From: an uncultured Spirochaetota bacterium
GTDB taxonomy: Bacteria > Spirochaetota > Spirochaetia > SZUA-6 > Fen-1364
NCBI GenBank assembly: GCA_963734545.1
Contig: CAVTHO010000005.1
Coordinates: 134,886-198,885, forward strand
Length of the DNA: 64,000 bases
Direction: 5' to 3'
The notes beneath the pieces were generated by a model, which was not told the DNA's origin, ran no database searches, and saw only the letters and a list, made by a program, of their open reading frames with translations. The position numbers and the translations under genes were made by a program. How positions within the stretch are numbered: position 1 is the stretch's first letter; each line of letters starts with the position of its first letter. Of the stretch, positions 34,283-45,014 are shown piece after piece.

Positions 34283-34312
34283 TTGACGTATTCGACCCAT
34301 TCTCCTTACTAT
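34283..34312 (+). promoter_or_regulatory. Putative sigma70-type promoter for parE
   Basis: TTGACG (34283-34288), 18-nt spacer, TACTAT (34307-34312). About 80 nt upstream of ATG 34392. Confidence 0.35.
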
Positions 34313-34391
34313 GGAAAGAAATACGGACCATGCCCGCCCGTGGAGCGAAAGCGGTGGGACCCATTCCCCGTTCATTCATGTAAGGACGCAT

Positions 34392-36218
34392 ATGCCGAAA
34401 ACTGCCGTCAGGTACGACGAGAAAGCAATCCAGACCCTCGATTCCCTGGAGCACATCCGCCTGCGCACAGGGATGTATATCGGGCGGCTCGGTGATGGCT
34501 CCAACCCCACGGACGGTATCTACATTCTCCTGAAAGAGATCATCGACAACAGCGTGGACGAGTTCATCATGGGGGAGGGAAAGGTCATCGAGATCGTCCG
34601 GAAAAAGGAGTCGATGGCGGTCCGTGACTACGGCCGCGGCATCCCGCTGGGCAAAGTGATCGACTGCGTGAGCAAGGTCAATACGGGCGGCAAGTTCAAC
34701 GACGAGGTGTTCCAGTTCTCCGTGGGTCTGAACGGCATCGGCACCAAGGCGGTCAATGCGCTGTCTGCTGATTTCGAGGTTGCCAGCTTCCGCGAAGGGA
34801 AGTTCATGCAGGGGCTCTTCAAGACCGGCAAGCTCGTCAGCCAGAAGGAAGGCAGGGAGCCAAAGGCCAGAACAGGCACACTGGTCCGGTTCACCCCTGA
34901 CCCGAAGATCTTCGGCTCGTATGCATGGAACGACGATTTCATCCTCAAGAGGCTGCGCTACTACGCCTACCTGAACAGGGGCCTGCGCTTCCTGTACAAC
35001 GGTGAAACGGTCGTGAGCCAGGGCGGGCTGCAGGACCTTCTCGTGGAAGAGATAGGCGACGAGTCCATGCACTACGAGATCGCCCACTTCAAGGGTCCCC
35101 ACCTGGAGTTCGCCTTTACGCACACGGCCAACTATGGAGAAAACTACTTCAGCTTCGTAAACGGCCAGTTCACCATCGACGGCGGGACTCACCAGACCGC
35201 CTTCCGCCTGGGGGTGTTGAAAGCCATCGACGACTACGCGGGGATCAACTTCTCCGCGGAGGACGTGCGGGAGGGGATGATCGGCGCAGTGGCCATCAAG
35301 CTCAAGGACCCCGTCTTCGAAAGCCAGACAAAGCACAAGCTGGGCAACAACGAGATACGCGGCTGGGTGGCGGAGGAGGTCAAGCAGCAGACACTCACAT
35401 GGCTGCACAAGAACGAATCGGAGGCGAAGAAGCTCGTCGAGAAGATAAAGTCGAACGAGCGGATCAGGAAAGAGCTCTCCACGATCAAGAAGCAGGCGCG
35501 GGAGATGGCCCGCAAGGTGGAGATCCACATCCCCAAGCTCACCGACTGCAAGGTGCACTACGATGACTTGAAGGACAAACGGCGGGAGGAGACCAGCATC
35601 TTTCTCACGGAGGGGGATTCGGCCGGCGGTCCCATGATCCAATCGCGGGACGTGTATACCCAGGCCATCTTCTCCCTCAGGGGAAAGCCGCTGAACGTGT
35701 ACGGCATGAAGCGGGACACCGTGTACAAGAACGAGGAGCTGTACAACATCATGCGCGCCCTGGGCATCGAGGAAGACCTGGAGGGCCTGCGCTACAACAA
35801 GGTGATCATCGCCACGGACGCGGACGTGGACGGCATGCACATCAGGAACCTCCTGCTCACCTACTTCCTGCACTACTTCGAGGAGCTGGTCCTGAAGGGC
35901 CATGTCTATATCCTGGAGACCCCGCTCTTCAGGGTGCGCACGAAGAATGAAACCGTCTACTGCTACAGCGAATCGGAGCGGGACGTCGCAATGAAGCGCT
36001 TGAAGGGAAACGAGGTCACTCGTTTCAAGGGCCTGGGGGAAATAAGCCCCGGGGAGTTCAAGCAGTTCATGGGAAACGACATCCGCCTCCTGGAAGTGCA
36101 GATCCAGTCCATGGGCGGCGTGCACAAGACCCTGGAGTTTCTCATGGGAAAGAACACGCCGGAGAGGAAAAAATTCATCGTGAACAATCTCGTGGCCGAT
36201 GTGCTGCAGGGCGCATAG
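34392..36218 (+). CDS. parE: Type IIA topoisomerase subunit B (topoisomerase IV ParE-like, short form)
   Basis: ATG 34392 inside track ORF 34311..36218. GHKL motif LLKEIIDNSVDEF. Toprim motifs TEGDSAGG, SLRGKPLNV, IATDADVDGMHI. Confidence 0.85.
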   Translation: MPKTAVRYDEKAIQTLDSLEHIRLRTGMYIGRLGDGSNPTDGIYILLKEIIDNSVDEFIMGEGKVIEIVRKKESMAVRDYGRGIPLGKVIDCVSKVNTGGKFNDEVFQFSVGLNGIGTKAVNALSADFEVASFREGKFMQGLFKTGKLVSQKEGREPKARTGTLVRFTPDPKIFGSYAWNDDFILKRLRYYAYLNRGLRFLYNGETVVSQGGLQDLLVEEIGDESMHYEIAHFKGPHLEFAFTHTANYGENYFSFVNGQFTIDGGTHQTAFRLGVLKAIDDYAGINFSAEDVREGMIGAVAIKLKDPVFESQTKHKLGNNEIRGWVAEEVKQQTLTWLHKNESEAKKLVEKIKSNERIRKELSTIKKQAREMARKVEIHIPKLTDCKVHYDDLKDKRREETSIFLTEGDSAGGPMIQSRDVYTQAIFSLRGKPLNVYGMKRDTVYKNEELYNIMRALGIEEDLEGLRYNKVIIATDADVDGMHIRNLLLTYFLHYFEELVLKGHVYILETPLFRVRTKNETVYCYSESERDVAMKRLKGNEVTRFKGLGEISPGEFKQFMGNDIRLLEVQIQSMGGVHKTLEFLMGKNTPERKKFIVNNLVADVLQGA

Positions 36219-36239
36219 CATCGATAGAAGGAAGACACC

Positions 36240-38180
36240 GTGAGCCTGCTCAAGCCCCTGATGGAGAAGAACTTCCTCGAATATGCCAGCTACGTGATCA
36301 TGGACCGGGCCATCCCCGATCTGCGGGACGGCTGCAAGCCGGTGCAGCGGCGCATCCTCCACACCCTTTTCGAAATGCACGACGGGAAGTTCCACAAGGT
36401 GGCCAATGTCATCGGGGAGTGCATGAAGCTGCACCCCCACGGCGACGCCTCCATAGGGGACGCCCTGGTGGTCCTGGCCAACAAGGATTACTTCATCGAG
36501 AAGCAGGGCAACTTCGGCAATGTCCTCACCGGTCATGCCGCCGCCGCCCCCCGCTACACGGAGTGCCGCCTGACGCCGCTGGCGGTGGAGACGCTGTTCA
36601 ACAAAGCGCTCACGGAGAACATCCCCAGCTATGACGGAAGGCGCCAGGAGCCGCGCGAGCTTCCCGCAAAGGTGCCGGTGCTCCTCATGCTGGGCGCGGA
36701 GGGCATCGCGGTGGGGATGTCGACCACGATCCTCCCGCACAATTTCATCGAGCTGCTGGAAGCCCAGATCAGCATCCTGCGCGGGAATGACTACTCTCTT
36801 GCCCCGGACTTCATCCAGGGCGGCCTGATCGATGTGAGCGAATACGACGACGGCCGCGGAAAGATCCGGGTGCGGGCGAGGATCGAGAAGATATCAAGCG
36901 CCCAGAAGCTGGTCATCCGCGATGTGGCCTGGTCCACGACCACGACCGGCCTGATCGCATCCATAGAAACGGCCGTGCAGAAGGGAAAGGTGAGCGTCAG
37001 CACGATCAATGACTTTACCACTGACAAGGTGGAGATCGAGCTGCATCTCTCCCGCGGCGCTTCGGCGGAAGCGGTCATGGATCAGCTGTACGCGCACACC
37101 GACTGCGAGGTGTCGATCAGCTCGAACATGGTCGTCATCCGGAACGACCGTCCCGTCGAGGTCACCGTTTCCGAGTACCTGAAGGAGTTCACCGGCATTC
37201 TCAAGAAGCAGATCAAGGCGGAGCTCGAGCACGAGCTTTCGAACCTCGAGAACCGCCGGCACTGGCTCACGCTGGAACAGATATTCATTGAGAACAGGGT
37301 GTACAAGGCCATAGAGAAAGCCGCCACGGAAGAAGCGGTCAAGAAACAGGTCTTTGAGGGCATGAAGCCGTTCAAGAAGCTCTTCGTCAGGCCCATGACG
37401 GAGGACGACGTGACGCGCCTGCTCGACCTGAGGATCCGCCGGATCTCCGCCTATGACATCAGGAAAAATCGGGGCGAGATCACCGACATCGTGGCAGCCA
37501 TCAAGCTCTGCAACGCCCGGTTGAAGAACCTCACCAAGACCACCATCGGCTGGCTGTCGGGTCTTGTGGAGAAGTACAAGGACCTTTTCCCGCGGAGAAC
37601 GGTCGTGGAGACCTTCCACACCGTGGACAAGGTGGCGGTGGCCAAGGCGAACATCCGCCTGAGCTATGACCGGGAGGCCGGCTACTTCGGTTCATCGATG
37701 CGCGGCTCGGAGTTCGTGATGAACGTCACGGAGTACGACCGCATCCTCACCGTCACATCAGACGGCACCTATCGCATCATGGCCCCCCCGGACAAGGCCT
37801 GGATGCCCGGCGCTCTCCTGTACGCGGCGGTCTGGGATCCGGGGAAGGGAGAACACTTCGTTCTTGTCTATCGGGACGCGGCCAAAGTGGCGTGGGGCAA
37901 GCGGGTGCACATCGAGCGGTTCATCACGAACAAAACCTATTCGCTGGTCAAGGAAGGATCGGTCGGCATCGACTTTCTGTCGGAAAAAAAGAATCCGGGC
38001 GTGCTGCAGCTCAACATGGTACCTTTCAAGCGTCAGAAGGTGAAGGCGGTCACCGTGGACCTGGGCAAGATCCCCGCCTGCGGCCTTGCCGCCCGGGGCC
38101 TGAGACTCTCTGCAAAGCCGGTGCAAAGCGTGCAGCTCCTGCCGGGCAAAGAGAAACCATCACGAGCGGAAAAGAAGTAG
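36240..38180 (+). CDS. parC: Type IIA topoisomerase subunit A (topoisomerase IV ParC-like, short 646-aa form)
   Basis: DGCKPVQRRIL, HPHGD and the active-site region AAAPRYTECRL. The short C-terminal domain argues against GyrA. Confidence 0.85.
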   Translation: MSLLKPLMEKNFLEYASYVIMDRAIPDLRDGCKPVQRRILHTLFEMHDGKFHKVANVIGECMKLHPHGDASIGDALVVLANKDYFIEKQGNFGNVLTGHAAAAPRYTECRLTPLAVETLFNKALTENIPSYDGRRQEPRELPAKVPVLLMLGAEGIAVGMSTTILPHNFIELLEAQISILRGNDYSLAPDFIQGGLIDVSEYDDGRGKIRVRARIEKISSAQKLVIRDVAWSTTTTGLIASIETAVQKGKVSVSTINDFTTDKVEIELHLSRGASAEAVMDQLYAHTDCEVSISSNMVVIRNDRPVEVTVSEYLKEFTGILKKQIKAELEHELSNLENRRHWLTLEQIFIENRVYKAIEKAATEEAVKKQVFEGMKPFKKLFVRPMTEDDVTRLLDLRIRRISAYDIRKNRGEITDIVAAIKLCNARLKNLTKTTIGWLSGLVEKYKDLFPRRTVVETFHTVDKVAVAKANIRLSYDREAGYFGSSMRGSEFVMNVTEYDRILTVTSDGTYRIMAPPDKAWMPGALLYAAVWDPGKGEHFVLVYRDAAKVAWGKRVHIERFITNKTYSLVKEGSVGIDFLSEKKNPGVLQLNMVPFKRQKVKAVTVDLGKIPACGLAARGLRLSAKPVQSVQLLPGKEKPSRAEKK

Positions 38181-38213: not shown

Positions 38214-39092
38214 TCAGGAATCTCCCGCGCTTCCGGTAACGGGCGTCTGCCGGACACGATCCTTCAACACACGGCTGAAAGCCATCCTGGGCGCCTGCTC
38301 TTCCGGCCTGGCCTTGAGCGTGATCTTTTCACCCGTGGCAGGGTTGATCCCGACCCGCGCTTTCCGCGCCGGCCTGAGCCGCAGGGACAGCCGGCCCATC
38401 TTTCCCAACGGCACCCGCAGACCGAGGAGAAGACCCGATTCGAGCATCATGAGGTAGTCATCGATGAGCTGCCGGGTCTGCTTCTGGCTCAGCTCATTCT
38501 TGCGCGCCAGGTAGGTGACAATGGATTTCATCGTGAGCTGCTCGGGGAAATCACGGCCGGGCCTGGTCACCGTGCGATTGATCCTGACAAAACCGTTGGT
38601 GAGGAATATCGTCGCCTCCCGGATCCTCTTCTCCTGCTCATCCGCAGGGACCGCCGGGTCACAGGCGGCAATCTTGAGCAGCGCGGAGGTGCTCGCCACA
38701 GGTCCGGCGCGCAGCCTCGCAGCCTCTCCGAGGGCCAGGTCGGATTCGAGTTGTCCCTCCTCGGACATTGCGAGGTGCGGGACGTCGGTGCGAAGCTCGA
38801 TGCTCGCGTACTCGGTCCTCCGCCCTGCGCCGGCTTCCCCTGACGGCCCCAGGCTGAGCAGAGAGCCTGACCAGGTCAGAAGCAGGGCGCCCCGGGGATC
38901 ATCGGCGGAAAACCGGTCCAGCTCGCGCATGTCCAGCGCCCTGATCTGCGCTTCGAACATGTCTTTCTTCTCGAACCACACCCGCGCCATTTCCGCCAAA
39001 GAGTCTTCCGTTTCCGGGAGGCCCGAGCTCCTGATGAGCCCCTGCAGATGGGCCCTGATTGCAGAACTCAAACCGCGCGCGTTCTCCGTCAT
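38214..39092 (-). CDS. Two-domain protein: unknown N-terminal domain (paralogous to gene 39199..39729) fused to a C-terminal HU/IHF-type DNA-binding domain
   Basis: The C-terminal 95 aa (MKSIVTYLARKNELSQKQTRQLIDDYL..RVPLGKMGRLSLRLRPARKARVGINPATGEKITLKARPEEQAPRMAFSRVLKDRV) match the HU fold pattern (RNP.TGE, beta-arm). The N-terminal 175 aa align with the divergent neighbour. Confidence 0.75.
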   Translation of the reverse strand: MTENARGLSSAIRAHLQGLIRSSGLPETEDSLAEMARVWFEKKDMFEAQIRALDMRELDRFSADDPRGALLLTWSGSLLSLGPSGEAGAGRRTEYASIELRTDVPHLAMSEEGQLESDLALGEAARLRAGPVASTSALLKIAACDPAVPADEQEKRIREATIFLTNGFVRINRTVTRPGRDFPEQLTMKSIVTYLARKNELSQKQTRQLIDDYLMMLESGLLLGLRVPLGKMGRLSLRLRPARKARVGINPATGEKITLKARPEEQAPRMAFSRVLKDRVRQTPVTGSAGDS

Positions 39093-39198
39093 GGCATCCC
39101 CCTGCTGAAAAGGTAGTGTGCTTTGCCCGCAATCTCAACCCGCGGCCCTGGTCGGTAAGCAGGCCGGAAATGGGCTATACTCGGCACAGGAGGAACGC

Positions 39199-39729
39199 AT
39201 GAGCGAACACCTTGACCTGATCCCCGTCGAGATCCAGAGCCATATCCGCCAGATCACCAAGACCTCCGGACTTCCCGACACGGAGGAGTCGGTGGACATG
39301 ATCGCCCAGGGATGGCTGGAGAAGAAGGACCGTTTCGAAAAGCTCCTGGCCCGCATGAGCCTCGAGGAGGTCGACCTCCTCGAGAAGACGGACCCGCGCG
39401 GCTGCCTGGCCATGACATACTCCGGCTCCCTCATCAACATCGGCCCCCTGCGCGAGGGAGGGAGAACCGTCCAGTATGCGAGCATCGGCCTGCGCCAGGA
39501 CGTGCCGGAGATTGCCACGCAGGCAGGCTCGGAGCTCGGGGCCGATGTGGTGGAAGGCACGCCGGTCACATTCACGCAGGGACCCATCAGGAGCTCGTCC
39601 CCTGTCTTCAAGATCGTCGTGACCAGCGAAGACATGGACCTGGAAGCGCAGGAGCAGCAGATCACGAAGGCGACGCAGATACTCACGAAGCAGTTCGTGG
39701 AGGTGAACAAGGAGCTGGAAACGGAGTAG
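39199..39729 (+). CDS. Hypothetical protein, paralog of the N-terminal domain of the HU-fusion protein; first gene of the kinase operon
   Basis: ATG 39199 follows CAGGAGGAA. Blocks shared with gene 38214..39092: SGLP(D/E)TE(E/D)S, W(L/F)EKKD(R/M)FE, DPRG, (T/T)(Y/W)SGSL, YASI.LR.DVP, ATq/iLT..FV..N. Confidence 0.7.
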   Translation: MSEHLDLIPVEIQSHIRQITKTSGLPDTEESVDMIAQGWLEKKDRFEKLLARMSLEEVDLLEKTDPRGCLAMTYSGSLINIGPLREGGRTVQYASIGLRQDVPEIATQAGSELGADVVEGTPVTFTQGPIRSSSPVFKIVVTSEDMDLEAQEQQITKATQILTKQFVEVNKELETE

Positions 39730-39739
39730 GCTTCCGCTG

Positions 39740-40756
39740 ATGCGGGCGCTTTCTGAAAAGCTCCAGGAGATTTACCACCGCAGGGAGCCTCCGGATCGCG
39801 AGGCATACCTGGAGACTCTCTGGGCGGTGCTGGAAGTGCTGGGCACGGAGCCCGACGCCGTCCGGCCCGCGGACCCGGACTGGAAGCCGGGCGGGCTCGT
39901 GCTTCTGGACCGGGAGCTGCCGACGATCGTGGTGCCTGATCTGCACGCCCGGATGGATTTCTTCCTCAGCGTCATGGCCTACGAGGCGGAGGAAGGCAGA
40001 AAAACGCTGGACCTGCTTGCGGAGGATCGTCTCCAGGTGGTCTGCGTCGGTGACGGCGTGCACTCCGAGGGTCGGGCGGCCAGACGCTGGCGGACGGCAA
40101 TGGACGAGTTCCAGGAGGAGTATCGGGTCCATGCAAGCATGGACCAGGAGATGCGGGAAAGCCTCGGGGTGATGAGCATGGTCATGGAGGTGAAGCGCAG
40201 CTTTCCGCTGCGTTTCCATTTCCTGAAGGGAAACCACGAAAACATCACCAATGAGATGGGCAACGGCAATCTTCCGTTCCGCAAGTTCGCCCTCGAAGGC
40301 ATCATGACGCTGGACTACATGGAGCGCTTTTACGGAGAAGAGATGGTGAAGGCATATGCTTTTTTCGAAAAGGAGCTGCCTCTCCTCGCCGCCGGCCGGG
40401 GCTTCCTCATTTCCCATGCGGAGCCCGGCACGTTCTACGACCGGCAAAGCCTCATCGGGTACAGGCGGCATCCCGAGGTGGTGAGCGGGCTCACCTGGAC
40501 GGACAATGACGAGGCTGAGGGGGGGAGCGTCCAGCGCATGCTGACCCACTACCTCGGAGAGGAAGAAGGGTCCCGCGGCTGGTATTTCACCGGGCATCGC
40601 CCCGTCTCGGGGCGCTACCGGCTCCGGGCCGACGGCAGGCTCGTCCAGATCCATGACCCCGAGAGATTCATGATCGCCCATTTGCCTGTCTCCTCGGAGA
40701 TCGAGCCGGAAAGGAACGTCCGCGAAATCGAGTATCTCGCGGACGAGGTAATGTGA
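39740..40756 (+). CDS. PPP-type metallophosphoesterase (putative Ser/Thr protein phosphatase)
   Basis: Motifs: VVPDLHAR, VCVGDGVHSEG, LKGNHEN, ISHAEP. Ends 1 nt before the kinase gene starts. Confidence 0.7.
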   Translation: MRALSEKLQEIYHRREPPDREAYLETLWAVLEVLGTEPDAVRPADPDWKPGGLVLLDRELPTIVVPDLHARMDFFLSVMAYEAEEGRKTLDLLAEDRLQVVCVGDGVHSEGRAARRWRTAMDEFQEEYRVHASMDQEMRESLGVMSMVMEVKRSFPLRFHFLKGNHENITNEMGNGNLPFRKFALEGIMTLDYMERFYGEEMVKAYAFFEKELPLLAAGRGFLISHAEPGTFYDRQSLIGYRRHPEVVSGLTWTDNDEAEGGSVQRMLTHYLGEEEGSRGWYFTGHRPVSGRYRLRADGRLVQIHDPERFMIAHLPVSSEIEPERNVREIEYLADEVM

Positions 40757-40757
40757 A

Positions 40758-42650
40758 ATGGAAAAAACACCGGTACGCAGGATAGGGAAATACGAGATCA
40801 TCTCGAAGGTCGCGGAGGGCGGGATGGGGGCCCTCTACAAGGCGCGACATCCCACCCTGGACCGCACCGTGCTGTTGAAGAAGCTCACCCTGCGAGGCGG
40901 GAGCCAGTTCATAGAGAGATTCAAGCGCGAAGCCCGCATGATGATGGACTTCAAGAACGACCATATCGTGCAGGTGCACGATCACTTCAAGGAAGGCCAA
41001 CACTACTACATCGTCGAAGAGTACGTGGACGGCATCTCACTGGACGCGCTGATCCGCAGGGAGCGCTACCTCTCCAATGACGCGGCCCTGCTGATCCTCT
41101 ACGAGGTGTGCAAGGCGCTGAAGTACGCGCACGACAAGCAGGTCATCCATCGGGACATCAAGCCGGGCAACATCCTGCTCTCGCGGCAGGGCGAGGTGAA
41201 GCTGGTGGACTTCGGCATTGCCACCTCCCTGGAAGACACCGAGGACGGGCTCACACGGGACGGGATGGTGCTGGGAACGCCCTCCTATATCCCCCCGGAA
41301 CAGATCGACGATGCGAAGAACGTCGACCGGCGCGCGGACATCTATTCGCTGGGGGTCGTGGTGTACGAGATGCTCACGGGAAGAACTCCGTACCCCGGCT
41401 CCTTCACGGCCGAGACTATCCACCTGATCCACAAAGGAAAATACACGCCACCACACAAGCTGAATCCCGGCACGACGCGCCTGCTGCGACAAATAGCGCG
41501 CACGTGCATGAGGGTGAAGCCCCGGCGGCGCTACCAGGACCTGAAGGAGATCATCCGGCTGCTGGAAAAACGCATCAGGAGGCGCGACCCCGCTTCTCTC
41601 CAGCGCGCGGTAAGGAACGTGGTCGAGGGAAAGGAGATCGGCAGCCTGTTCAGGAGAAGGCGCACCTGGCTCGCCTGGCTCCTGCCCCTTGCCGTGCTGG
41701 CCTGCCTGCTCGCCGCCGGCGGCTGGTACCTGTACCAGCAGGGCTGGTGGTTCGAGACATTCGAGCCCGGGCGCTACGGGCTTATTGTCGTCTCCGCCGT
41801 GGTGGACGCCTCGTACAAGGAGCCCGACGAGATCTTCTTCCAGCCGGTGCTGTACCGGGAAGAGGATAATCAGCTCACCCGGATTACCGGAATCGACTTC
41901 CAGCTCCATCCGGATGCCGCGCGCACATCGTCGGACAGCTTTGCCCTCGTGTCGAGGAAGGTGTATCTGCCGGCCGGAAGGTACCGGATGAAGGTCAGCC
42001 TGGAAGGTGAGCTCTCCTGGAGCTCCTTCACCCTTGCGCCCCGCGTGGTGCAGAAGACGCTCGTTTCCACGGCGGGCGGATTGCAGATTACCGTCCGGCA
42101 GGGGAGCGGACAACGGCTCCTGGAGGTGAGCTCCACGGTGACGGATTCGGCGACCGGAGAGGACCTGACCAGCTCCGCCGTGCTGTCCGTATTCCTCTAC
42201 AATCGCTGGATGCCGTGGAGCGCAACCCGGCCCCAGGACTTCACCTCGGGAGGGAGCTACCGGTTCCGGTTCGAGATGGAAGGCTACTATCCCCAGGTCT
42301 ACAGCCTTGTCGTCAAGCCTTACCAGACGGTGCTGAGCCTCGATGTGCGGCTGGTGCCGCAGCCCGGAACGCTCAACCTGCTCTCCCGCGCTCCCGGGGC
42401 GGATCTGCTCCTGAACGGCTCAGAGTACTACCTGAGAGGCGGCAAGGACGGTCGATTCGAAAAGCTCGCGCCCCTGGAAACCGGCAATCGCCAGATACAG
42501 CTCGCCCCGGGCGACTACCGCCTGACGGTGCGCCGTCCGCCGGCCCAGGAGAAAAGCGTGAGCTTCCACCTGGGTCCCAAGGGGACGGTCTCCCTGAGCG
42601 TCGGATTCGACGCGCAGCAGGGAGTCCTGAACGTCGAGCTGAACAAATAG
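40758..42650 (+). CDS. Hanks-type Ser/Thr protein kinase with TM helix and extracytoplasmic PEGA-like C-terminal region
   Basis: Kinase motifs: GGMGALYKA, LLKKL, HRDIKPGNILL, DFGIA, GTPSYIPPEQ. TM helix WLAWLLPLAVLACLLAAGGWYLY. PEGA-like segment PGADLLLNG...GDYRLTV near the C-terminus. Confidence 0.9.
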   Translation: MEKTPVRRIGKYEIISKVAEGGMGALYKARHPTLDRTVLLKKLTLRGGSQFIERFKREARMMMDFKNDHIVQVHDHFKEGQHYYIVEEYVDGISLDALIRRERYLSNDAALLILYEVCKALKYAHDKQVIHRDIKPGNILLSRQGEVKLVDFGIATSLEDTEDGLTRDGMVLGTPSYIPPEQIDDAKNVDRRADIYSLGVVVYEMLTGRTPYPGSFTAETIHLIHKGKYTPPHKLNPGTTRLLRQIARTCMRVKPRRRYQDLKEIIRLLEKRIRRRDPASLQRAVRNVVEGKEIGSLFRRRRTWLAWLLPLAVLACLLAAGGWYLYQQGWWFETFEPGRYGLIVVSAVVDASYKEPDEIFFQPVLYREEDNQLTRITGIDFQLHPDAARTSSDSFALVSRKVYLPAGRYRMKVSLEGELSWSSFTLAPRVVQKTLVSTAGGLQITVRQGSGQRLLEVSSTVTDSATGEDLTSSAVLSVFLYNRWMPWSATRPQDFTSGGSYRFRFEMEGYYPQVYSLVVKPYQTVLSLDVRLVPQPGTLNLLSRAPGADLLLNGSEYYLRGGKDGRFEKLAPLETGNRQIQLAPGDYRLTVRRPPAQEKSVSFHLGPKGTVSLSVGFDAQQGVLNVELNK

Positions 42651-42659
42651 GGGGTACGC

Positions 42660-43574
42660 ATGACCGCACTCGCTCGCAGACTCATTCTCCTGGCCATCGG
42701 ATTGCTGGCAGGCATGTGCGCATGGCCGGTGGCAGAGCTGATTCTTTTTTCCCAGGCGGGATTCCCCTCCTACCTCGTCTTTTCGGCCTTCCTGGGAGCA
42801 GTCACGGGTGCCCTGATGGGCGCATTCTTCGGCACTGCCGAGGGCATCACCTCGCGCGTCAAATCCCGCATTCCGGCCGGGGTCCTGCTGGGAGCGCTCG
42901 TGGGATGCGTGGGAGGAGGCATCGGCCTCCTGGCAGGCCAGGCCGCCCTCTGGCTGATCGGCACCCTCGTCATGCAATCCTACGCCAGTTTCCAGCGCGT
43001 GGTCCTTCCGCTGTCGCATGCAATCGGCTGGGCCGTCCTCGGCGTGTTCGTCGGGGCGGGAGAAGGCGTGCGCGCCGGCTCCTGGAAGAAAATCGGAATC
43101 GGGATCCTCGGCGGCCTCATCGGCGGGCTTCTGGGGGGTTTTGTCCTGGAATACGGGCGGCTGCTCTTTCCGCGGGTTGGCTTTTCCCGGCTGATCGGCT
43201 TCGCGGTGCTCGGGCTCGCCATCGGCGGTTTCTACGGCCTGATCGAGCGGGGCATGTCCTTCGGTATCTTCCGCGTCCTGACCGGCGGCCTGAAGGGAAA
43301 GGAGTTTCTCCTCAACCAGCGGCGGATGCGCCTTGGCCGCTCGCCGCGGAACGAGATCGCTTTCCCCTCCTATGAGGACCTCGCGGACCGCCAGGCCCAG
43401 GTCCGTATTCGCAAAGGGGAGGTCGTGCTGGTCAACCTCGAGCCTCGACTTCCGATCCTGGTCAACGAGCAGAAGATCGAGGAATCCGCGGAGGGCCGCG
43501 GCGTGGAGAAGAGGCTCAAGCTCGGTGACGTGATCCGGATGGGCTCGGCCCGGATCTACTACAAATACGAATAA
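42660..43574 (+). CDS. Multi-pass membrane protein with C-terminal FHA-like domain
   Basis: About six hydrophobic Gly-rich segments. C-terminus MRLGRSPRNEIAFP...QAQVRIRKGEVVLVNLE..ILVNEQKI...LKLGDVIRMGSARIYY is FHA-like but diverged. Confidence 0.65.
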   Translation: MTALARRLILLAIGLLAGMCAWPVAELILFSQAGFPSYLVFSAFLGAVTGALMGAFFGTAEGITSRVKSRIPAGVLLGALVGCVGGGIGLLAGQAALWLIGTLVMQSYASFQRVVLPLSHAIGWAVLGVFVGAGEGVRAGSWKKIGIGILGGLIGGLLGGFVLEYGRLLFPRVGFSRLIGFAVLGLAIGGFYGLIERGMSFGIFRVLTGGLKGKEFLLNQRRMRLGRSPRNEIAFPSYEDLADRQAQVRIRKGEVVLVNLEPRLPILVNEQKIEESAEGRGVEKRLKLGDVIRMGSARIYYKYE

Positions 43575-43586
43575 AGGGGGCTTCGC

Positions 43587-45014
43587 ATGACCCTGAAACA
43601 TCCGCGTGCACTGTTGCCTGCATTCCTGCTCCTTCTCCCGGGCGTCGCCTTCGCCCTCAATATCAGCCTGGCACAGATCGATGCCTCCCGGCTGCTTTTC
43701 ACCCAGAACGTGCAGGTGTACGTCAGCGTGACCGATAACCAGGGGCTGCCTGTCGAGGGACTCGAGAGGGACGCCTTCAGCATCGCAGAGTCCTCCGACG
43801 GGGTGACCTTTCAGCAGATACCGGAGATTTCCGCATTCACCCCGAACGCGGGCGCGGTCACCGGTATGACATTCCTGCTTCTGATCGATGACTCGGGCAG
43901 CATGTACGACACGCTGGACAGCAGGGCCACCACAAACCCCCTGCTCATGCGCATTGCCCATGCCAAGGACGCCGTGCGCACCCTGCTCTCCGGCATGACG
44001 AATCCGGGCGACCGGGTGGGCCTGGCCTATTTCAACACGGGGTACCATCTTCTTTCCCGGCCCACGACCGACAGGGAGAAGATTGCAGCCCTGCTGGACG
44101 AAATCCAGCGCCCGACCGCTGAACAGGCCTACACCGAGCTCTACGCCTGCCTGACCCAGGCGGCGCACGAGTTCGCCGGCATCCCCGGCCGCAAGGCGAT
44201 CATCGTCCTCTCGGATGGAGAGAACTATCCGTATGCCGTGCACGCAGGCAAAGCGCATCCTGTTTTCGGCAGCCGGATCTTCGCGTATGGGGAGCCCATC
44301 ACCGCCAACCAGGAGGAAGGGAACACGGTCTATGCCGTCAATTTCGGAACGGGGAATGCTCCTGACCGGAACCTGAGGGACATTGCGCTCCAGACCGGAG
44401 GCAAGATCTTCGACGCGAGGAACAGGGACGAGCTGGCAAGCGTCTACGACACGATCCACCGGCAGGTGGCAGGGGAGTACCTCCTCACCTATCGGGCCAC
44501 CCTCACCCCGGCAGAGAAGAAATATGTGCGGGCGCGCATCGCCGCGCCCGAGGGAGAGGCGTCCGTCACCCGGTTCTACTTTGCCAGCACCGTCTTCGGG
44601 CTCCCCCTGGGCAGGCTCACCCTGCTCCTGGTGATCCCCTTTGTCCTGGCCTGCCTCCTTCTCTGGGGCCTGACGCTCCTGCGGCTGGAAAGGAAGAGCG
44701 GGCCCGCCCGGCTGGAAGTGCTCCAGACCCAGGTGGGCCGCCCCGTCACACGGATTGTGCCGCTCACGACGGCAAAGACCGTGATCGGCGGCAGCCCGAA
44801 GGCGGACATGACAATCGTGGGTGCCCCGCGGATCAAGGAGCAGCACGCGACCATCCTTTTCGACCCGAAGAACAAGAGCTACACGGTGGTCGGCACGGGG
44901 GACATCATGGTCAACAATCAGCCCGTGAAAACGCGCACGCTGGAGTCGGGGGACGTGCTCGACATCGGCGGGGCCTCGATCGTTTTCGACGACGAAGGGA
45001 AGGGCGGCAAATAG
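43587..45014 (+). CDS. Secreted vWA-domain protein with TM helix and cytoplasmic FHA domain
   Basis: Signal peptide. MIDAS LLLIDDSGSM and VLSDGEN. TM helix LTLLLVIPFVLACLLLWGLTLL. FHA domain VIGGSPKADMTI...KEQHATILFD...VVGTGDIMVNNQPV...LESGDVLDIGGASIVF. Confidence 0.8.
   Translation: MTLKHPRALLPAFLLLLPGVAFALNISLAQIDASRLLFTQNVQVYVSVTDNQGLPVEGLERDAFSIAESSDGVTFQQIPEISAFTPNAGAVTGMTFLLLIDDSGSMYDTLDSRATTNPLLMRIAHAKDAVRTLLSGMTNPGDRVGLAYFNTGYHLLSRPTTDREKIAALLDEIQRPTAEQAYTELYACLTQAAHEFAGIPGRKAIIVLSDGENYPYAVHAGKAHPVFGSRIFAYGEPITANQEEGNTVYAVNFGTGNAPDRNLRDIALQTGGKIFDARNRDELASVYDTIHRQVAGEYLLTYRATLTPAEKKYVRARIAAPEGEASVTRFYFASTVFGLPLGRLTLLLVIPFVLACLLLWGLTLLRLERKSGPARLEVLQTQVGRPVTRIVPLTTAKTVIGGSPKADMTIVGAPRIKEQHATILFDPKNKSYTVVGTGDIMVNNQPVKTRTLESGDVLDIGGASIVFDDEGKGGK

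Follow-up and report, generated by a model that had tools for sequence, protein, structure and literature searches.

In a stretch of 64,000 nt of DNA from an uncultured Spirochaetota bacterium (the window), two divergently transcribed genes, here called FUS and FREE, encode paralogous copies of a domain of about 175 residues, the first joined to an HU-type DNA-binding domain and the second standing alone as gene 1 of an operon that encodes a Hanks-type Ser/Thr kinase (Table 1). Both open reading frames lie where a preliminary description of the locus, made by eye from the sequence, had placed them, and every sequence block quoted there is present in the translations. When the two proteins were aligned with BLASTP, the alignment covered the first 173 residues end to end, with 65 of 173 positions identical (38%), 60% positives, 2 gaps and an E value of 4e-41; the two N-terminal regions are thus true paralogues, with an identity slightly above the one third first estimated. 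The HU-type domain was correctly assigned to the minus-strand copy only, as PF00216 was matched by FUS while FREE had no Pfam match and so no HU domain. The start codons are indeed 106 nt apart, and the promoter region said to be common to both genes is common in the physical sense that there is one 106-nt spacer, but in no further sense.

Table 1. Coordinates in the window of the FUS/FREE pair, the spacer between them and the genes downstream of FREE.
Feature	Position	Strand	Basis
FUS, HU-fused paralogue gene (P0001, 292 aa)	38214..39092	-	Open reading frame and translation
FUS HU/IHF (DNABII) domain, residues 188-281, with beta-arm motif RKARVGINPATG	38250..38531	-	PF00216, PDB sequences, Foldseek
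FUS flexible linker, residues 173-187	38532..38576	-	Low predicted local distance difference test score (pLDDT), variable alignment
FUS shared domain, residues 1-172	38577..39092	-	38% identity to P0002; AlphaFold2 model
Divergent spacer, 106 nt	39093..39198		Sequence; alignment with five relatives
Conserved block AAAAGGTAGTGT, beside the FUS ribosome-binding site	39108-39119		Near-relative alignment
Conserved block CAATCTCAAC	39130-39139		Near-relative alignment
GGGCTATACT with -10-like TATACT, shortly before the FREE ribosome-binding site	39172-39181		Near-relative alignment
AGGAGGA ribosome-binding site of FREE	39188-39194		Near-relative alignment
FREE, free paralogue gene (P0002, 176 aa), operon gene 1	39199..39729	+	Translation
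PPP-like metallophosphatase (338 aa)	39740..40756	+	Pfam Metallophos; DLH, GDGVH and GNHE motifs
Hanks-type Ser/Thr kinase (630 aa)	40758..42650	+	Pfam Pkinase, E 6e-52
Polytopic membrane protein with C-terminal FHA-like domain (TM-FHA, 304 aa)	42660..43574	+	FHA, E 1e-5; Yop-YscD_cpl, E 5e-7
vWA-transmembrane-FHA-like protein (vWA-FHA, 475 aa)	43587..45014	+	VWA_2, E 6e-14; FHA, E 7e-6

Judged from its sequence context, the true start of FREE is ATG 39199 and not the upstream GTG 39118, since AGGAGGA lies 4 nt before it, homologues are 175-178 aa long and it is from this ATG onwards that near relatives are conserved. Selection on both genes is purifying, with ratios of nonsynonymous to synonymous substitution rates of 0.09-0.22 against near relatives (about 0.1 for FUS). 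FREE has 252 homologues of 175-178 aa, which carry neither names nor Pfam domains, and FUS has 570 of about 283-300 aa, which are named only as HU family DNA-binding proteins of Spirochaetia or Spirochaetales bacteria. The source genome holds exactly two copies of the shared domain, FUS and FREE, and the close relatives of the window proteins all belong to uncultured Spirochaetota. Across the window, G+C content is 59-68% in 2-kb bins, and about 63-64% near the pair.

The C-terminal part of FUS is an HU domain that is intact in sequence and predicted fold. Residues 187-280 match PF00216 (Bac_DNA_binding) over profile positions 2-89 of 90, with 44.6 bits (cut-off 22.4) and an E value of 1.8e-11, and a sequence search of the PDB with the same part hit chains of HU and IHF. 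Matches to the NCBIfam IHF-alpha and IHF-beta models were weak and far under the equivalog cut-offs, so the domain is neither IHF subunit proper. In the AlphaFold2 model it comprises helices 188-198 and 203-222, strands within 233-272 and helix 274-281 at a pLDDT of about 90-94, and in Foldseek it matched 1p71, 6lmh, 1ihf and 2np2 with a probability of 1.00, an E value of 2e-6 and template modelling scores of 0.74-0.79 on the target. The basic beta-arm keeps the N-P-x-T-G motif with its intercalating proline (RKARVGINPATGEKI); K244, R246, N250, T253 and G254 are at least 90% conserved among 29 fusions, and five divergent fusion lineages have F or L in place of the arm proline. Between the HU domain and the N-terminal domain, the modelled linker (173-187) has a pLDDT of about 60, falling below 50 at 178-183, and is variable in the alignment.

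FUS is therefore an HU-domain protein of non-classical architecture, in which 292 residues include a 172-residue N-terminal domain predicted to be folded. Its residues 188-281 resemble classical HU/IHF proteins (Borrelia Hbb, 2np2; Anabaena HU, 1p71) in the PF00216 match, the fold and the arm R-K-A-R-x-G-x-N-P-x-T-G. However, the classical proteins stand alone at about 90-100 aa, whereas FUS has a folded domain ahead of HU and is encoded in the company of a kinase operon. The source genome has two further HU genes, short and conventional, which makes FUS a specialised extra copy. Other fusions are on record in a survey of HU-superfamily architectures, but none of them is linked to kinase or FHA genes (PMC5499826), and relative to that one published survey the architecture is new.

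The N-terminal domain was unrecognised in the preliminary description and remains so, since profile and fold searches (Pfam, NCBIfam, PDB, Foldseek) returned no neighbour. There was no match to Pfam, NCBIfam or PDB sequences, and the AlphaFold2 model of FREE, built from a 32-sequence alignment and confident (pLDDT 91, predicted template modelling score 0.86), gave no significant Foldseek match in BFVD or in the PDB, where the best E value was 0.17, the probability at most 0.38 and the query template modelling score at most 0.28. The model shows helices at 10-22 and 29-53, eight strands within 56-141 and a long helix at 148-175, and the modelled N-terminal part of FUS runs through its elements in that order too, from two helices through eight strands to one long helix. 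The shared domain is thus predicted to be of the alpha/beta type, with a helical hairpin, a beta core of eight strands and a long helix at the C terminus. When 1.84 billion representative proteins were searched with a profile, only 206 relatives were found; every named one is from Spirochaetota, and the lengths of the 206 fall mainly into two groups, near 176 aa and near 285-305 aa. When one genome for each prokaryotic species was scanned, there were 183 relatives, and the best 80 of these 183 are all from metagenome-assembled genomes of Spirochaetota, from soil, peat, sediments and soda lakes. The shared domain has so far been seen in Spirochaetota only, and we regard it as a new family, without description in the libraries and literature searched.

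Several known folds were considered and rejected. A divergent FHA domain (PF00498, an 11-strand beta-sandwich) was not supported by Pfam, by hhalign (probability 0.2%) or by Foldseek, among whose matches there was no FHA structure. The PilZ proteins BcsA and PlzA ranked high in the Foldseek results, yet with template modelling scores of 0.12-0.14, and no RxxxR or D/N-x-S-x-x-G PilZ motif was seen on inspecting the shared-domain alignments. Foldseek matches to SRPBCC helix-grip, lipocalin, PH-like and Sm folds were weak, and none was significant.

We then consider which residues the two paralogues have in common. At seventeen positions, conservation reaches at least 90% and the residue is identical in the FREE and FUS clades (W39, K42, F46, S75, G76, S77, R89, Y93, S95, I96, R99, D101, V102, P103, S134, F166 and N170), and not a single position is fixed differently between the clades, which together suggest that FREE and FUS retain one common site rather than having diverged in function. 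T73 is near-invariant, and S75-G-S77, S95 and S134 are invariant; the invariant serines sit in confidently folded strands and turns of the AlphaFold2 model, with pLDDT values of 94-97. T28 of the SGLPDTEES loop was considered as a universal phosphorylation site and rejected, being conserved neither in divergent fusions nor in the third architecture described below.

FUS and FREE are ancient paralogues from one old duplication. In a maximum-likelihood tree of 152 domains, all 92 free copies form one clade with support 100/99, the single apparent exception being a fusion truncated at a contig end, and the same lineages group alike within the free side and within the fused side. This single free clade and the matching lineages argue for one duplication that predates the divergence of these spirochaete families, followed by co-inheritance. 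Among 401 Spirochaetota genomes from 153 genera, the shared domain was found in 55 genomes and 37 genera. Profiling for co-occurrence with the downstream genes, as had been proposed, showed that the vWA-FHA gene is present in 48 of the 401 genomes and that all 48 fall within the 55 that carry the domain.

The linkage of the free domain to a kinase operon, claimed at first for this locus, is conserved across the phylum, and FREE is a near-obligate head gene. In 20-kb stretches from 20 genomes across Spirochaetota, FREE always heads the order phosphatase, Ser/Thr kinase, TM-FHA and vWA-FHA, with the phosphatase absent in two. When 101 loci were compared, 97 free-type genes had room downstream, and the next gene was the phosphatase in 77 and directly the kinase in 14; at least 91 of the 97 are thus followed by the kinase operon, and in at least two of the six remaining cases the exception is only apparent, caused by overlaps in the counting script. 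The intergenic gaps from FREE through the four downstream genes of the window are 1-12 nt. In the reading favoured below, FREE would be a soluble part of this conserved signalling module at the membrane and would be co-transcribed with it as gene 1. FUS is divergent from and adjacent to FREE in 51 of the 101 loci, and tandem upstream of the operon in one (L047). In three others (L042, L043, L046) it closely follows the last gene of the operon, in convergent orientation. In one further locus (L115) the divergent pair is present with no kinase operon within the approximately 3 kb fetched of a 5.6-kb contig.

As side observations on copies outside this arrangement, a low-GC lineage (L153, G025:C277, 6656-8452) has a two-gene unit in which a free copy is paired with the phosphatase and no kinase is encoded in the 6.6 kb that follow, and two genomes (G077, G133) have three or four domain copies, with extra free copies (L050:3126-3650; L106:3001-3531) that are not followed by kinase genes.

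Among the operon products, the phosphatase matches Metallophos with 20.1 bits, just below the cut-off of 21.5, and has no NCBIfam match, while its DLH, GDGVH and GNHE motifs are present in the translation. The kinase has a long C-terminal region with a weak, sub-threshold CarboxypepD_reg-like match. In the TM-FHA family, the phosphothreonine-contacting Arg ('GR') is kept in 1 of 16 sequences and the Ser ('SxxH') in 2 of 16, and in the vWA-FHA family neither canonical residue is kept in any of 17. From these sequences, the FHA-like domains of the window and of loci L032-L051 may be phospho-independent interaction modules, like FHA domains of the YscD type. The lone TM-FHA copy that keeps the Arg is the window's own (42660-43574). 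Interpretation of the operon as a known anti-phage defence system was rejected, since PADLOC gave only generic kinase-model matches for the kinase domain and none for the other five proteins.

A more compact version of the module is found in the Treponema-like genomes. The phosphatase homologue occurs in 87 of the 401 genomes, 37 of them without the shared domain; these phosphatase-positive, domain-negative genomes are Treponema-like, and their phosphatase-kinase pair comes without TM-FHA or vWA-FHA genes. At the position of FREE, directly before the pair, there is instead a canonical FHA gene of 114-123 aa, whose small products retain both the phosphothreonine-contacting Arg and Ser. The phosphatases are 37-40% and the kinases about 33-35% identical to those of the window, and in both systems a small soluble protein is encoded immediately upstream; in the Treponema-like triad, however, this is a canonical FHA protein (Pfam E 3e-23), and there is no TM-FHA, vWA-FHA, shared domain or HU fusion. 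Such triads of FHA protein, PPP-like phosphatase and Hanks kinase were seen in the low-GC loci L052 (9524-12564), L053, L054, L058, L059 and L063. A winged-helix gene after the kinase in L052 was considered as a parallel DNA-binding output and rejected, as it is not conserved in the other loci of this kind.

The shared domain is found in further architectures as well. In a third family, whose members have about 300 aa and form 47 clusters, all from Spirochaetota, it is combined with a helical C-terminal region of about 120 aa that has no Pfam match (representatives, L061:9438-10310 on the minus strand and proteins P0393-P0437). Members of this family are not beside kinase genes; one neighbourhood contains a TPR protein and a response regulator, and another contains RapA. 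A single protein of 701 aa (P0309) joins vWA, a transmembrane segment, the shared domain and the C-terminal region of the third family, so that the shared domain takes the cytoplasmic position held by the FHA-like domain in the vWA protein of the window. This fusion hints that the shared domain works at the cytoplasmic face of the vWA membrane protein.

Within the spacer, a generic promoter scan found no site, and the -10-like element of Table 1 marks a putative promoter, assigned from conservation. Many of the 51 divergent spacers have a similar -10-like box, G-n-TATACT, before the free gene. A universal operator was looked for and rejected, since only this box and lineage-specific blocks were found (CAATCTCAAC among near relatives and GGAATTCC-like palindromes elsewhere). 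The GGAATTCC-like palindrome (e.g., ACTGGAATTCC) is present in several distant spacers among L120, L124, L132, L134, L110, L125 and L101, and in very short divergent spacers (64-73 nt) the -10-like boxes of both genes overlap on opposite strands. Such palindromes and overlapping boxes are possible lineage-specific operators.

How bacterial Hanks-type kinases reach gene expression is known in few systems, and the pair described here offers a testable route in a phylum-restricted module, in which one copy of a domain is soluble and encoded alongside the kinase and another copy is fused to HU. The reading that we favour, to which we give slightly less than an even chance, is that both copies dock the same partner in the kinase system and that the HU-fused copy is the output arm to DNA. 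FREE and the N-terminal domain of FUS would dock via the invariant W39, K42, S75-G-S77, R89, Y93, S95, R99, D101, S134 and N170 on one and the same component of the kinase/phosphatase complex, and this docking would probably depend on phosphorylation. FREE could then act as an adaptor, competitor or buffer, and retention of FUS at the complex versus its release would set the amount of FUS free to bind and bend DNA, the targets of which plausibly include the divergent promoter region that it has in common with the operon in about half of the loci. This reading is favoured by the paralogy and its origin in one duplication, the operon linkage, the nesting of the vWA-FHA gene within the domain carriers, the proximity of FUS in three arrangements and the common residues, as well as by the Rosetta-stone hint of P0309, the FHA protein at the position of FREE in Treponema-like genomes, the intact HU domain and the precedent of HupB discussed below. 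We infer the physical interaction, its dependence on phosphorylation, the competition between paralogues and the DNA target alike. The earlier proposal that both copies sense the same partner or ligand fits the 17 common residues, but the choice of a ligand rather than a protein is unsupported, as are a regulatory role of FUS and its binding to the 106-nt spacer.

A number of observations weigh against docking on a common kinase-system partner. FUS lies far from the operon in the complete genomes G210 and G317 and 34 kb off in G216, and the near-complete genome G139 shows a free copy only. No operator motif common to the 51 divergent spacers was found. The SGLPDTEES loop with T28, which is the best candidate for a phospho-acceptor, varies in divergent fusions, and the third paralogue family, not being linked to kinases, indicates that the shared domain is able to work outside the kinase operon. 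In addition, the invariant polar patch, as read from the alignment, would fit a small-molecule ligand or a catalytic site equally well.

This last point leads to an alternative that we consider unlikely, namely, that the shared domain is a small-molecule or second-messenger sensor, with FREE relaying the ligand state to the kinase system and FUS acting as an independent ligand-responsive nucleoid protein in the style of a one-component system, so that a metabolite sensed by both would be the only link between them. The 17 invariant residues are mostly polar (Lys, two Arg, Asp, Tyr, four Ser and Asn), as is typical of a ligand or anion pocket, the third family and some fusions stand apart from the kinase operon, and the topology loosely recalls ligand-binding beta-barrel and helix-grip folds, with weak Foldseek matches to PYL, KshA, lipocalins and PilZ proteins. 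However, these matches are insignificant (E above 0.1, template modelling scores below 0.3), inspection of the alignments revealed no RxxxR or D-x-S-x-x-G motif of the PilZ type, and FREE is almost always operon gene 1 while vWA-FHA never occurs without the domain, a tighter association than a mere common metabolite predicts. Somewhat less probable again is that the domain is a substrate of the kinase, whose phosphorylation, for example in the invariant T-Y/W-S-G-S hairpin, alters its oligomeric state and, in FUS, directly switches HU dimerisation or DNA binding. The invariant S75-G-S77 and S95/S134, the near-invariant T73, the operon linkage and the phosphorylation of HupB (PMC4754617) would all suit such a substrate, but the invariant serines are placed in folded strands and turns (pLDDT 94-97) rather than in a flexible acceptor loop, and the exposed loop threonine T28 is not conserved. 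This alternative overlaps with docking on a common partner, from which it differs only in whether the domain reads the phosphorylation or is written upon.

The pair may also lack any functional link, FUS being a lineage-specific nucleoid HU variant and the adjacency a remnant of tandem duplication. We regard this as improbable, even though FUS is unlinked in several complete genomes, HU proteins usually show little DNA sequence preference and the 51 divergent spacers yielded no common operator: many families diverged only after the duplication, and FUS is nevertheless still next to the operon in 55 of 101 loci, with three orientations among them, which implies that the adjacency was selected for or arose anew more than once; the common site is identical in both clades; and the pair is kept in L115 though no kinase operon lies within the approximately 3 kb fetched. 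We see an equally slight chance that FREE serves the membrane proteins as an enzyme or in their assembly, for example as a chaperone of the vWA or FHA-like proteins, and that FUS reuses the fold for something else. Its first-gene position, the tight gene spacing, the fusion to a vWA-transmembrane protein in P0309 and invariant polar residues that are possibly catalytic would be in keeping with such a role, whereas the retention of the same 17 residues by both clades, with none fixed differently, argues against diverged function, and there was no similarity to enzyme or chaperone families in the libraries searched.

Comparison with known systems places the operon in a familiar kind of signalling module. 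In Sulfolobus, the Arn network consists of ArnA (FHA), ArnB (vWA), the kinase ArnC and the phosphatase PP2A, which form a phosphorylation-switched complex affecting gene expression (PMC12852372, PMC7472852). The spirochaete operon similarly encodes a Hanks kinase, a PPP-like phosphatase and FHA-like and vWA proteins. However, the Arn proteins are archaeal and soluble, and the FHA domain of ArnA binds phosphorylated ArnB, whereas the spirochaete FHA domains are on membrane proteins and mostly lack the phosphate-contacting Arg/Ser; the shared-domain pair and the HU output have no Arn counterpart. In Pseudomonas aeruginosa, the PpkA/PppA/Fha1 system of the H1 type VI secretion system comprises a membrane Hanks kinase, a cognate phosphatase, an FHA protein and an extracytoplasmic vWA domain (PMC3224232). 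There, the kinase itself carries the vWA domain, the pathway leads to the assembly of a secretion machine and not to a DNA-binding protein, and no relative of the shared domain is present. The phosphatase PppA is of the PP2C type and not of the PPP type. In Mycobacterium tuberculosis, phosphorylation of the HU protein HupB by Ser/Thr kinases lowers its DNA binding (PMC4754617). HupB has no folded sensor domain, and none of the Arn, PpkA/PppA/Fha1 and HupB systems contains the shared domain or the HU fusion. What is new here is the domain and the HU architecture; the signalling module in which they occur is of a known kind, and the mechanism proposed for it is plausible and testable.

A further likeness may be found in EmbR of M. 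tuberculosis, in which an FHA domain is fused to a DNA-binding domain. Like HupB, EmbR shows how a Hanks kinase can be connected to DNA. EmbR joins phospho-signalling to DNA binding, as FUS may, but it does so with a canonical FHA domain and a winged helix, while the shared domain of FUS is not an FHA domain (hhalign probability 0.2%). Since a canonical FHA protein is encoded at the position of FREE in Treponema-like genomes, the FHA domains of the operon mostly lack the phosphate-binding Arg/Ser and the shared domain has invariant Lys, two Arg, Tyr and Ser residues, we also entertain the doubtful idea that the shared domain is a new phosphopeptide-reader fold that replaced the canonical FHA protein in place, and that FUS is a phospho-reader joined to a DNA-bending module. 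A Lys/Arg/Tyr/Ser-type constellation binds phosphate in 14-3-3 proteins. Were this phospho-reader reading true, FUS would provide an EmbR-like output from two unrelated parts, and a direct route from Hanks-kinase signalling to nucleoid architecture. The structure and the binding partner of the shared domain would define a new family, for which there is no solved or curated relative. Carrier genomes that are single-contig and apparently complete include G030, G094, G210, G317, G332 and G380; if these are cultured free-living spirochaetes, the proteins could be cloned from real strains.

Two minor features were noted in the vicinity of the pair. On the far side of FUS, parE-like and parC-like topoisomerase IV genes (34311-38180) are convergent to it and end 33 nt from its stop codon, a linkage that is probably incidental since this neighbourhood is common only to the closest relatives (L064, L065). 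Within the operon, an inverted repeat with a 12-bp stem (CGTCCGCGA...TCGCGGACG, 40717-40745) falls within the 3'-terminal part of the phosphatase gene, with the kinase start codon following 12 nt later, and could affect translational coupling.

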